Source: a bacterium
GTDB lineage: Bacteria > Patescibacteriota > Minisyncoccia > Phycocordibacterales > JBBTRF01
DNA length: 64,000 nucleotides
Assembly: GCA_037130265.1 (NCBI GenBank)
Contig: JBAXTI010000001.1
Location: 98,092 to 162,091 of the forward strand
Direction: 5' to 3'
Within the stretch, counting starts at the first letter, position 1. Every line of letters starts with the position of its first letter. A program made the position numbers and the translations under genes. Shown in pieces: positions 2 through 52,703 of this stretch. Below the pieces are notes generated by a model. That model was not told the origin of the DNA. It saw only the letters and a program-made list of their open reading frames with translations, and made no database searches.

Positions 2-1060
2 GGCCGTATCGTGCGCCTCCAGGCGAATGAGCGAGAAGAGGTGAAGAAGGTGTATGCCGGAGAAATCGCCGCTGCGGTGGGTCTCAAGGATGCGCTTACC
101 TCACACACTTTCTGTGACGAAGAGCAGCCGGTTATTCTCGAAGCAATCAAGTTTATGGAGCCGGTGGTCTCTCTTCGTGTAGAGCCAAAGACCAAAGCCG
201 ATCAGGAAAAGATGGGCATGGCTTTGAAGAAACTCGGAAACGAAGACCCAACCTTCAAGATTAGTTCCAACTCAGAGACTGGTGAAACCATTATTTCAGG
301 TATGGGAGAACTTCACTTGGAAATCATGGTGGACCGTATGAAGCGTGAATTCGGTGTCGAAGCGAACGTTGGCAAGCCTCAGGTAGCATACCGAGAGACC
401 ATTCAGGGTGAGGCAGAGGCAGAAGAGAAGTACATCAAGCAGACCGGAGGAAAGGGTCAGTACGGTCACGTGATCATCACACTCCGACCAATGAAGCCAT
501 TGGAAGAGGGGGAGAAGGTGAAGAAGAATGTCAGCCGATTCGCCGACTTCGAATTTATCAACTCAATCAAGGGAGGTGCGATTCCAGGAGAATTCATCCC
601 TGCGGTGGAGAAGGGTGTACACGAGGCGATGGACCGAGGTGTTATCGCCGGATACCGAATGGTGAATGTGTCTTGTGAATTGACGTTCGGTAGCTACCAC
701 GATGTGGACTCATCAGAAATCGCGTACAAGATCGCTGGTTCATTGGCTTTCCAGAGCGCATCAAAGCGTGCGAAGCCGGTGATTCTCGAGCCGATCATGA
801 AGGTGGAGGTATTGTTCCCAGAGAAGTTTATGGGTGATATCACTGGTAGCATCTCTTCAAAGCGAGGTACTATCGAGGAAATGACTGAGCGAGGCCAGGC
901 GAAGGTGATGCATGCCAAGGTACCGTTGTCCGAAATGTTCGGTTACACCACCCAGCTCCGATCTATGACCTCAGGACAGGGTTCTGCAACCATGGAATTC
1001 GATCATTACGCGCCGGTGCCGAAGTTTGTGGAGCAGCAGATTATTGAGGCTCGTAAATAA
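2..1060 (+). CDS. fusA: Elongation factor G, C-terminal part (5' end outside window)
   Basis: Translation ([33 protein letters not shown]... domains III-V) is unmistakably EF-G; ORF is open to the window edge, stop TAA at 1058-1060. Confidence 0.95.
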
Positions 1061-1168
1061 GGAAATACAAAACACCCTTCTTGGGGTACGCGTAAAAGCT
1101 TGCTAGCTTTTCGCTCCGGCTCGGCCCGACGGCCTCCGCAGTCCCCAAGAAGGGTGTTTTGTATTTCC
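1061..1168 (+). repeat. 26-bp perfect inverted repeat (1061-1086 / 1143-1168) enclosing a conserved 64-nt structured element (copy A, 1083-1146)
   Basis: ggaaatacaaaacacccttcttgggg ... ccccaagaagggtgttttgtatttcc is a perfect palindrome. The enclosed core aligns with 15627-15690, with compensatory changes in two hairpins. Confidence 0.75.
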
Positions 1169-1244: not shown

Positions 1245-1277
1245 TCAAAAAGAAAACCCCGCGGTTGGGCCGCGGGG
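1245..1277 (-). terminator. Rho-independent terminator of the minus-strand 142-aa gene
   Basis: ccccgcgg-ttgg-ccgcgggg hairpin; A-run on the plus strand is a U-tract on the minus strand. Confidence 0.6.
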
Positions 1278-1318
1278 TGGTAAAATCTCTGGTTCGGAAT
1301 CCCATTGGTTTCCATATG

Positions 1319-1747
1319 TCAGTCCGTATAAACGGGTCTTTTTATCTTCCGATCGAAACCAGTCAAGACGTAGACCTCGGGAGTTGCCAGGATGAACAAT
1401 CCATCTCCGTCGTCATCAATCCAGCCTTCGATCAGTTGACCGTCGTGCTCTGGCCAGCCACTGATGACCCGTGCGCCGAAACAGTAGTGGTCCGGGGCAG
1501 TCGGCATGTATTTGATAGCAAAGGCTAGGACCTTGATATCAGCGTCTGCGGGTGCTATTTCCGACCGGTTGAGGTAGTGGATACTGGCGATTTTGAGCCG
1601 GAAAGGCTCTTTTTTATATTGGAAATCCACCATATCATCGATTATCGGCCCCGATACGAAGCGAAAGTGGCAGACCTCGGGGTAGAGACCGTTCTCGACC
1701 GCGCGGACGGTTAGATACATAGAAGGCGGGTTCCTTTCTGGATTCAA
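1319..1747 (-). CDS. Hypothetical protein (142 aa) inserted between fusA and tuf
   Basis: Clean ORF with its own terminator; protein-like composition (acidic DDDGDG patch); no family recognised by eye. Confidence 0.55.
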   Translation of the reverse strand: MNPERNPPSMYLTVRAVENGLYPEVCHFRFVSGPIIDDMVDFQYKKEPFRLKIASIHYLNRSEIAPADADIKVLAFAIKYMPTAPDHYCFGARVISGWPEHDGQLIEGWIDDDGDGLFILATPEVYVLTGFDRKIKRPVYTD

Positions 1748-1943
1748 AGTGTTGCTTATTCAAATCCGCTCTAAAGCCTATTCTTTTGAGGGGTGGGTGT
1801 CAATGAGGCTGGTTCATGTTTCGACACCTCGCACTCAATTCCTTTATCAAAAATTAGGCTTTTCTTGAATCATTCTTAGTGATTTCTTTATCACCCTTTT
1901 GATATGCTTTCTTAGTCTGCCTTGTCGACGGCAGACTTGGTTG

Positions 1944-1973
1944 ACACAAGTTTATCTTAAGATAAACTTGTGT
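1944..1973 (+). promoter_or_regulatory. Perfect 30-bp palindrome (acacaagtttatctt|aagataaacttgtgt) overlapping a ttgaca -35-like hexamer and the antitoxin start: candidate TA autoregulatory operator
   Basis: 15+15 nt perfect inverted repeat ending 2 nt before the ATG (1976) of the Phd-like antitoxin gene. Confidence 0.6.
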
Positions 1974-1975
1974 AT

Positions 1976-2224
1976 ATGAAAACCAACATTATCGGCCTTA
2001 AAGAGCTGCGGGAGAATATGGAAAAATATATCTCAGAAGTAGAAAAAGGGCGGTCTTTTGTGGTAGTGAAAAAGTCGAAACCCGCTTTCAAAATGGTGCC
2101 TGTCGACGAGTGGGGGGACGAGGGAGTATGGAAGACCCTGGTCGATTTTACCGAAATTGATCCAAATGGGGTGCGTATCGAAGAAGTAATCGCCTCGCTG
2201 AAACGTCTCGATGCACAAAATTGA
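1976..2224 (+). CDS. Type II antitoxin, Phd/YefM family
   Basis: Small acidic protein MKTNIIGLKELRENMEKYISEVEKGRSFVV..KSKPAFKMVPVDEW matches the Phd/YefM fold pattern; overlaps the downstream toxin by 14 nt. GTG at 1970 is an alternative start. Confidence 0.75.
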   Translation: MKTNIIGLKELRENMEKYISEVEKGRSFVVVKKSKPAFKMVPVDEWGDEGVWKTLVDFTEIDPNGVRIEEVIASLKRLDAQN

Positions 2225-2450
2225 TAAATTCCTCGCCAAGCTGGAAGAAAAGCAAAGAGAGCGGATCCTGTTAATCATCACACGGATCAAAGCACACGAT
2301 TTTACCGGTCTCGACCTCAAAAAGCTCAAAGGAGGCTTTGATATCTATAGAGTACGTTCTGGGCAATACAGGATCCTCTTTCACCTGACAAAGGACGGCA
2401 TCTTTCTTCTCGATGTCACCAGCCGCGACGACACCACCTACCATCTATAG
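2211..2450 (+). CDS. Type II toxin, RelE/ParE superfamily
   Basis: 79 aa; motif GGFDIYRVRSGQYRILFHLTKDGIFLLDV is typical of the RelE/ParE (plasmid stabilisation) core; overlaps the antitoxin gene. Confidence 0.75.
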   Translation: MHKIDKFLAKLEEKQRERILLIITRIKAHDFTGLDLKKLKGGFDIYRVRSGQYRILFHLTKDGIFLLDVTSRDDTTYHL

Positions 2451-2775
2451 AGTGATGGGTATAGTAATATAGAGTGTAATCATTCAACCCTGCCGCCGCC
2501 ACTGACGAAGACCTCTCGCAGGCGCGACGGCGCCGAGAGGAGCCGAAATTTCAGTAGAAATTTACGGCGTGTCTGAGGCAGTGGCGGCAAGGTTGACTTT
2601 ATTGCTCAATTTGTTACTATACCCATTGTCGCATTTTTTGCGTCTTTGGCCGTTTCGAATCAAAAGAAACGTCCTGGTATTAACTCGATTTATTATCATT
2701 AATTTTTGTTCTTAAGTTACAAGGCTCAGCCACTCTCGCGCGTTGAGCTTTGAGAATTAGGGACTCATTAAATAT

Positions 2776-15603: not shown

Positions 15604-15626
15604 TAAAGAAATTGCGGTGTATACAT

Positions 15627-15703
15627 GGGGTACGCATAAATCTCTGCTGAGATTTTGCTCCGGCTCGCGCCAGTCGCGCTCCGCAGTCCCTGTTTTTTGT
15701 TTG
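15627..15703 (+). terminator. Copy B of the conserved 64-nt structured element (15627-15690) plus U-tract: terminator of secY/spc operon
   Basis: Aligns base-for-base with 1083-1146, with compensatory changes in both hairpins; followed by tgttttttgtttg. Confidence 0.7.
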
Positions 15704-52659: not shown

Positions 52660-52674
52660 GGAAATGAAAGGGAA

Positions 52675-52703
52675 GGCCCGCGCCGTACGGCGCGGGCCTT
52701 TTG
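52675..52703 (+). terminator. Rho-independent terminator after pilC
   Basis: ggcccgcgcc-gtac-ggcgcgggcc plus tttt. Confidence 0.75.

Follow-up and report, generated by a model that had tools for sequence, protein, structure and literature searches.

In a 64,000-nucleotide stretch of contig JBAXTI010000001.1 (hereafter the window), from a member of the Patescibacteriota, the spacer between fusA, which encodes EF-G, and tuf, which encodes EF-Tu, contains a putative toxin-antitoxin (TA) operon. The list of open reading frames (ORFs) placed the fusA stop at 1060 and the tuf start at 2776, giving a spacer of 1.7 kb. This spacer, with an orphan gene of 142 aa on the minus strand, had been described in an initial annotation of the window, together with a Phd/YefM-RelE/ParE pair whose start codon is preceded by a perfect 15+15 palindrome; the ORF list confirmed the spacer and its orphan, and the palindrome was found as described. 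The TA locus consists of the following features.

1941-1968, plus strand: predicted sigma-70-like promoter of the TA pair (promoter scan; the hexamers and their spacing recur in 77 distinct family loci)
1944-1973, no strand: perfect 15+15 palindrome, putative operator of the antitoxin or of the TA complex (repeat finder, conservation, covariation)
1976-2224, plus strand: Phd/YefM-type antitoxin, 82 aa (PF02604, TIGR01552, AlphaFold2 (AF2) model, Foldseek)
2211-2450, plus strand: predicted RelE-type toxin, 79 aa (family profile, AF2 model, Foldseek, PHROG)

The antitoxin is a member of the Phd/YefM family, in agreement with the initial annotation. It scored above the cut-offs of PF02604 (29.9 bits against 29.8, a borderline match) and TIGR01552 (29.4 bits against 20.8), and its AF2 model (predicted local distance difference test (pLDDT) 80) showed the Phd/YefM beta-alpha-alpha-beta-beta N-domain, with a strand at residues 4-7, helices at 8-13 and 15-23, and strands at 28-32 and 35-40. 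The best Foldseek matches of this domain in the PDB were VapB46-N, Phd (including its DNA-bound form), M. tuberculosis RelB1 and YefM, with a root mean square deviation (rmsd) of 0.9-1.4 Å over 40-42 residues; for VapB46-N, the template modelling (TM) score on the target was 0.90 and the rmsd 0.9 Å. The C-terminal half of the protein contains a family-invariant P-x-D-x-W-G-D-E-G-x-W motif and a terminal helix. Among the matches listed were 244 homologous proteins, most with a precomputed PF02604 assignment and several with the NCBI name 'prevent-host-death family antitoxin'. One of them (P0008), encoded on a 464-kb NCBI contig of a metagenome-assembled genome, shows 100% identity to the window antitoxin. 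The GTG at 1970, which the ORF lister had picked, is not conserved as a start and is out of frame in the related locus L002 (L numbers denote the loci compared), whereas the ATG at 1976 is conserved.

The first 14 nt of the toxin gene overlap the 3′ end of the antitoxin gene. In an exhaustive HMMER search (E<=1e-3), a profile of eight sequences retrieved 2,715 cluster representatives of the toxin family, and nearly all of the 150 listed are 76-84 aa long. A profile built from 69 diverse members was then compared with the PDB; the result showed matches to RelE3 (3bpq, 3e-9), aRelE (1wmi, 7e-6) and E. coli RelE (0.03), and no ParE at E<=1. In the AF2 model of the toxin (pLDDT 86.7), helices at residues 3-10 and 13-27 are followed by four strands; the RelE fold, on which the initial annotation had made its assignment depend, is thus present. 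When this model was submitted to Foldseek, RelE entries filled the first seven ranks (TM 0.70-0.80), ParE appeared from rank 24 onwards with E>0.2, and the fold matches comprised the RelE proteins of M. jannaschii, P. horikoshii, M. tuberculosis, T. thermophilus and E. coli. The match in PHROGs was 'RelE-like toxin' (3e-10). These profile and model comparisons support assignment of the toxin to the RelE type, with archaeal RelE as its nearest relative, and not to ParE, so that of the earlier RelE/ParE label the first half holds and the second does not.

Among the 69 diverse family members, residues R47, R49, R54 and Y77 of the toxin do not vary, and R72 is kept in at least 90%. In a hidden Markov model alignment to E. 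coli RelE, R47 corresponds to K52, R49 to R56, R54 to R61 and R72 to R81, with K54 lying in an insert; Y77 follows R72 by five residues, the corresponding distance in E. coli RelE being six. In the RelE-ribosome literature, K52, K54, R61, R81 and Y87 are the catalytic positions of E. coli RelE. The first beta-strand of canonical RelE is missing from the window toxin. Because an in-frame stop lies three codons 5′ of the toxin ATG and the alignments begin at residue 10 of archaeal RelEs, the absence of this strand is real and typical of the family.

The palindrome upstream of the pair comprises the arms 1944-1958 (ACACAAGTTTATCTT) and 1959-1973 (AAGATAAACTTGTGT), which both direct reading of the sequence and the repeat finder showed to be 100% complementary without a spacer. 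The 30-mer occurs once in the window and in none of 100 shuffles, and the longest palindrome arm in 200 first-order Markov simulations was 12. A predicted promoter, with 10 of 12 consensus matches, is formed by TTGACA at 1941-1946 (-35), a 16-nt spacer and TAAACT at 1963-1968 (-10), and is covered by the palindrome from within the -35 to beyond the -10. The antitoxin ATG begins 2 nt past the end of the palindrome and 7 nt past the -10. Perfect zero-gap palindromes with arms of at least 8 number two in the window, the other being at 52673-52700. This second one (14+14, GAAGGCCCGCGCCG/CGGCGCGGGCCTTT) is GC-rich and is followed by a T-run; it was rejected as a comparable site, being an ordinary intrinsic terminator after an ORF of 400 aa for a membrane protein. 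By eye, without a family scan, this ORF is pilC/GspF-like, and genes with pilin-like N-termini follow.

The conservation of the operator and promoter was assessed in 77 distinct upstream regions aligned on the palindrome centre. The operator consensus is AAGnTTATCTT|AAGATAAnCTT, in which positions 3, 5 and 9 of the half-site do not vary and conservation reaches at least 95% at positions 2, 7, 10 and 11. Symmetric positions were complementary more often than expected at position 8 (77 versus 53%), position 12 (49 versus 25%) and position 13 (43 versus 27%), and several loci have divergent yet perfect 16+16 palindromes, such as ACACGAAGATTATCTT|AAGATAATCTTCGTGT in L040. Relative to the window, the operator is identical at 29 of 30 positions in L002 and at all 30 in L007 and L019, although dS in adjacent genes is about 0.6. 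The -35 reads TTGACN in 59 of the 77 loci, the spacer measures 17 nt in 59 loci and 16 nt in another 16, and the -10, which is part of the right arm, reads TAAACT in 58 and TAATCT in 14 (together 72/77). The A of the antitoxin ATG falls 6-9 nt past the -10 in 74 of the 77 loci, and exactly 6 nt past it in 48. From these alignments we infer that the palindrome, which lies inside the promoter, is an operator kept across the family, to which the antitoxin would bind and so repress its own transcription; the promoter-embedded conservation 5′ of 77 distinct TA loci lends support to the autoregulatory operator geometry proposed initially. Because the ATG sits at the distance of +1 from the -10 in 74/77 loci, the TA mRNA is likely to be leaderless and bicistronic, with its promoter fully covered by the bound antitoxin dimer or TA complex.

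The antitoxin family was found in 248 species genomes and is abundant in Paceibacteria/Parcubacteria-type members of the Candidate Phyla Radiation (CPR). Among 80 loci fetched from these genomes, a toxin homologue (32-53% identity) lies directly 3′ of the antitoxin in about 73. The close relatives come from groundwater and lake metagenomes. The layout is that of type II TA systems, in that the genes are small, adjacent and co-oriented, with the antitoxin first, an overlap of 14 nt and pairing across genomes. Compared with L002, the antitoxin has a ratio of nonsynonymous to synonymous divergence (dN/dS) of 0.04 and the toxin one of 0.11, at a dS of about 0.6; by these values both genes are under purifying selection, and the module is maintained and not decaying. 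A different pattern was seen in L019, whose EF-Tu is 97% identical to that of the window. There, the operator and the DNA-binding half of the antitoxin show about 83% nucleotide identity, whereas the C-half of the antitoxin and most of the toxin are only 40-58% identical, and the tuf leader is 100% identical across 2630-2780. The mosaic in L019 (4130-4480, compared with window 2130-2480) looks like a cassette-like recombinational replacement of the interacting halves; a joint exchange of the toxin and the antitoxin C-half would be expected if neutralisation specificity matters. The literature search returned no paper on this TA family, and the pair in the window adds a member to a large, unnamed Phd/YefM-RelE family restricted to the CPR.

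The closest toxins by profile are those of archaeal RelBE systems, namely M. jannaschii RelBE3 (3BPQ, E 3e-9) and P. horikoshii aRelBE (1WMI, E 7e-6), to which the window toxin is similar in fold (TM 0.71-0.80; 25-32% identity) and in a common YR-R-G-R motif and C-terminal Arg. The archaeal toxins are 88-90 aa long and have an N-terminal segment that the window toxin lacks, and they belong to archaea rather than CPR bacteria; their antitoxins are RelB-type, toxin-wrapping proteins without a Phd/YefM domain. E. coli YefM-YoeB, Enterococcus Axe-Txe and M. tuberculosis RelBE2 (3G5O) and RelJK (3OEI) share with the window pair the overlapping, antitoxin-first gene order and the Phd/YefM N-domain, and their structures are among the fold matches of the pair. 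These four systems are autoregulated at promoter-overlapping palindromes. The window pair differs from them in having RelE-type rather than YoeB-type (Glu/His) residues in the toxin, where the His after Y77 is not conserved, in the family-specific invariant WGDEGxW of the antitoxin C-half, and in a single long palindrome running from -35 to -10 in place of short L/S repeats with a TGTACA core. The N-domain of the antitoxin also superposes on DNA-bound Phd of the phage P1 Phd-Doc system (4ZM0, 4ZM2; rmsd 1.2-1.3 Å over 40 residues), which supports binding of the palindrome by a dimer; however, the P1 partner toxin is Doc, a Fic kinase targeting EF-Tu, and not a RelE, and the P1 operator differs in sequence and layout. 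In M. tuberculosis, TA transcripts are predominantly leaderless and start at the start codon (PMC8485053, PMC3898074), as is proposed here for another phylum from the promoter geometry of 74/77 loci.

Taken together, these results make it likely that the pair is a functional chromosomal type II TA operon, composed of a Phd/YefM antitoxin and a RelE toxin, transcribed without a leader and autoregulated through the palindrome, a reading drawn from sequence comparison and structure prediction. RNA polymerase would initiate at the sigma-70-like promoter with the A of the antitoxin ATG as +1, yielding a leaderless bicistronic mRNA on which translation of the toxin would be coupled through the 14-nt overlap. 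The antitoxin would dimerise by its Phd/YefM N-domain and bind the 30-bp palindrome, thereby occluding its own promoter, probably more tightly as a TA complex, as in other type II systems. Its C-terminal half (WGDEGxW and the terminal helix) would wrap and neutralise the toxin, and upon depletion of the antitoxin, free 79-aa toxin would be expected to act like RelE and cut mRNA in the ribosomal A site.

Several observations weigh against this reading. Alone, the window toxin scored 16.7 bits against PF05016, below the gathering cut-off of 23, and it has no match in NCBIfam; with its N-terminal strand missing, its activity could differ from that of canonical RelE. The Foldseek E-values of the small antitoxin domain are weak (6e-3). 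The evidence for the leaderless start is the consensus promoter geometry, and one family member, L029, has a leader of about 30 nt. The lack of a Shine-Dalgarno (SD) sequence was dropped as evidence for leaderless expression; it is uninformative because the genome is generally SD-poor. Some columns in a mutual information comparison of operator variants with antitoxin residues reached p<0.01, but these columns formed no consistent pattern, phylogeny was a confounder, and the comparison was not used. As to SD sequences in the window as a whole, a crude test based on the first ATG showed an SD-like tetramer at -20 to -4 in only 6 of 48 long ORFs, and non-SD or leaderless initiation may be common in this genome.

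As an alternative, the toxin might poison gyrase in the manner of ParE instead of being a ribosome-dependent RNase of the RelE type. In Pfam it touches PF05016 only, a family named 'ParE_toxin' (E 0.011 for the toxin of the window; matches in 25 of the 69 family members), and the ParE and RelE folds are highly alike. However, PF05016 appears to model the fold common to both, as a YafQ toxin in L030 matches it too, and the profile, Foldseek and PHROG searches described above ranked RelE ahead of ParE or retrieved RelE alone; with the basic residues at RelE positions and the C-terminal Tyr invariant, a ParE-type toxin is highly improbable. It is also improbable, though slightly less so, that the palindrome serves something other than antitoxin binding, either as an RNA hairpin that occludes the start codon in a longer 5′ untranslated region, transcribed from a promoter further upstream, or as a binding site of some other host factor or of a recombinase. 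A perfect palindrome of 30 nt would indeed give a strong RNA hairpin, its outer positions covary like base pairs, and a conserved block lies 35-100 nt 5′ of it. Nevertheless, the core is conserved in base identity beyond what pairing would demand and the right arm is further constrained as a -10 hexamer; the -35 stands at a fixed 16-17 nt in 75/77 loci with the ATG at the +1 distance; and the palindrome travels with the antitoxin gene into many unrelated contexts while occurring as a single copy in the window.

A domesticated or decaying remnant, in which the antitoxin is kept as a transcription factor and the 79-aa ORF is non-toxic, would account for a toxin that is shorter than canonical RelE and lacks beta-1. 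It would also fit the database record: the exact toxin sequence is recorded on a 534-bp ENA contig only and not on the 464-kb NCBI contig of the antitoxin, where the annotation pipeline PGAP may have missed it, and the toxin of L002 is labelled 'hypothetical protein' by NCBI. Yet a short toxin is the norm of the family, the residues at catalytic positions are invariant, the toxin dN/dS is 0.11, and L019 has exchanged its toxin jointly with the toxin-binding half of the antitoxin, as expected if neutralisation matters. Such a remnant is accordingly given little credence.

The remaining features of the fusA-tuf spacer and its borders, together with a third copy of a structured element elsewhere in the window, are as follows.

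11-1060, plus strand: fusA (EF-G), 3′ part, left border of the islet (ORF list, tblastn)
1070-1159, minus strand: copy A of a three-way-junction element of about 92 nt, within a long hairpin at 1044-1185 (inverted repeat, fold, covariance model)
1256-1278, minus strand: hairpin with a T-run, intrinsic-terminator-like, downstream of the ORFan (terminator scan)
1319-1747, minus strand: ORFan, variable islet cargo, 142 aa from a TTG start
1837-1910, plus strand: conserved block of about 70 nt 5′ of the TA promoter (alignment with L002, L007 and L019)
2496-2587, plus strand: copy B of the three-way-junction element (about 92 nt), within a long hairpin at 2455-2626 (fold, covariance model)
2593-2775, plus strand: predicted tuf promoter (TTGACT, 16 nt, TACTAT) and highly conserved leader (about 155 nt), bordering the islet on the right (promoter scan, conservation)
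15623-15695, minus strand: third copy of the three-way-junction element, after secY (covariance model)

In all close relatives, the TA pair lies directly 5′ of tuf with the same spacer of about 330 nt, and the interval between fusA and the TA promoter holds different genes. It contains the ORFan in the window, an ORF of 243 aa and a diversity-generating retroelement (DGR; bAvd and reverse transcriptase) in L007, L095 and L137 (861-3573 in L007), and an ORF of 133 aa and five ABC-transporter genes in L002 and L103. L007 is closely related to the window (99% identity at the fusA C-terminus and 95% for EF-Tu). Because the cargo differs in this way, between ORFan, DGR and ABC transporter, the fusA-TA interval is, as judged from the loci compared, a cargo-exchange hot spot. 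On the same comparison, the TA module is a lineage-conserved resident, the constant tuf-side element of an old variable islet, and not a recent event. The initial annotation was therefore right to place the pair between fusA and tuf, but a one-off insertion at this site is contradicted by its lineage-wide conservation next to tuf, beside the hot spot. The further proposal that the pair is a remnant of an integrated element found no pointer to a phage origin; a pattern-based scan of 2.9 million IMG/VR viral contigs gave no antitoxin relative, there were no PADLOC matches, and a phage or prophage origin was rejected.

The gene of 142 aa is a true ORFan. Its sole database match is the protein of the same metagenome-assembled genome (P0276, WCO79_00490), encoded on the 464-kb contig that also carries the antitoxin; it has no match in Pfam, NCBIfam, PADLOC or PHROG and is not present in any related locus compared. 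It was also considered as a homologue of the DGR-associated 243-aa ORF of L007, but there is no homology between the two. An alternative start is the ATG at 1720, preceded by GAAAGGAA, which would give 133 aa, and the NCBI call is 104 aa. The terminator-like hairpin downstream has a 9-bp stem with eight GC pairs and the tail TTTCTTTTTG. The neighbouring fusA is 74% identical to the EF-G of L010 (tblastn). The block at 1837-1910, which contains repeated TTTCTT(T)ATC motifs 35-100 nt 5′ of the operator, is kept in L002, L007 and L019 irrespective of the cargo 5′ of it; it could represent auxiliary half-sites, an UP-like element or a cassette boundary.

Family members were also found near str-operon genes in more distant genomes. 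With EF-Tu identities of 58-76% to the window, L010, L036, L051 and L069 carry a member between fusA and tuf; in L030, L061, L063 and L070 it lies between S7 and fusA, and in L039 5′ of S12. Altogether, 12 of the 80 species loci are within 4 kb of str-operon genes, at no fewer than nine places on the TA tree, whereas uniform placement would predict one or two if genomes of about 1 Mb are assumed; this enrichment is to be read in the light of the choice of the 80 loci as those most similar to a str-linked query, the poor resolution of the TA tree and the uncontrolled host phylogeny. Genes of other TA families were seen in two of these spacers. The S7-fusA spacer of L030 (1543-5210) encodes a YafQ toxin accompanied by a RelB-like antitoxin, as well as a HigB-like toxin and a Cas2/PaaX-like protein, and the fusA-tuf spacer of L069 encodes a HicA toxin (2207-2419). 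A second, clade-specific syntenic context is cca-TA-xth-xerC. Because this block is syntenic in one clade, the module can be inherited vertically elsewhere in the genome as well. A tyrosine recombinase near the TA pair in 10 loci was discounted as a sign of mobility, as it is part of this block and probably a housekeeping Xer.

Copies A and B of the three-way-junction element, which flank the islet, are homologous and mutually inverted. Copy A lies 12 nt past the fusA stop, antisense to fusA, with a fold of -71.3 kcal/mol (z -10.7) and a covariance-model match of 57.8 bits; copy B lies 46 nt after the toxin stop in sense orientation, with a fold of -61.3 kcal/mol (z -5.8), a match of 110 bits and compensatory changes in L002, L007 and L019. 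The covariance model gave 44 matches, 39 of them distinct, in related Patescibacteria metagenome loci (L095-L144 among them); the sample was collected by sequence pattern, which biases the conserved loop bases. Pairing is preserved in 95.9% of cells versus 68.6% in shuffles, and double-sided changes occur at 30 of the 34 pairs. The distribution of U-G and G-U pairs favours one strand, which is more often antisense than sense to the abutting gene. Its copies almost always stand 7-24 nt past stop codons, often between convergent genes, and Rfam gave no match at E<=10. The element may be terminator-like, insulator-like or REP-like; in the window, the TA transcript probably terminates at copy B, and copy A probably shields fusA. 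Two other readings were not retained. The hairpin at 2484-2596 contains CUGACGA and GAAA, but L019 does not keep this hammerhead ribozyme motif and Rfam, as stated, gave no match at E<=10; and the idea that the two hairpins are terminal inverted repeats of a TA-carrying mobile element is weakened by about 38 other sites and the third copy after secY.

At its -35, the tuf promoter overlaps the structured element, namely the 3′ strand of the latter. The tuf leader (2621-2775) is 99.4% identical to those of L002 and L019, compared with 92.4% for the tuf coding sequence. Because the leader is so much more similar than the coding sequence, the alignment suggests a strongly constrained, possibly structured regulatory leader.

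A broader proposal is that the TA module is a fixed anchor of a str-operon gene-exchange hot spot in Paceibacteria-type Patescibacteria, with cargo swapped among near-identical genomes and the islet insulated from fusA and tuf by inverted RNA elements. We regard this as doubtful. If it is true, the recurrence of this and other TA families at S12/S7/fusA/tuf junctions would reflect selection and not chance, namely selection either for the stability of accessory islets or for a link between toxin control and translation-factor loci, and the module would swap its toxin-binding half as a cassette, leaving the operator and the DNA-binding half unchanged.

Current concepts of TA function are unchanged by these results. 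TA biology in the CPR is, however, essentially unstudied, and the operator-promoter design described here, with a palindrome spanning -35 to -10 and the ATG at the predicted +1, is clean and conserved across class-level divergence, which would make the family well suited to modelling how TA pairs are autoregulated and expressed without a leader in organisms not yet cultured. The toxin offers a minimal RelE scaffold of 79 aa to which NCBIfam is blind and most members of which fall below the Pfam cut-off, so that a dedicated toxin model would improve the annotation of thousands of CPR proteins. Finally, the variable fusA-tuf islet with its structured flanks illustrates how streamlined genomes can place accessory genes inside a core operon.

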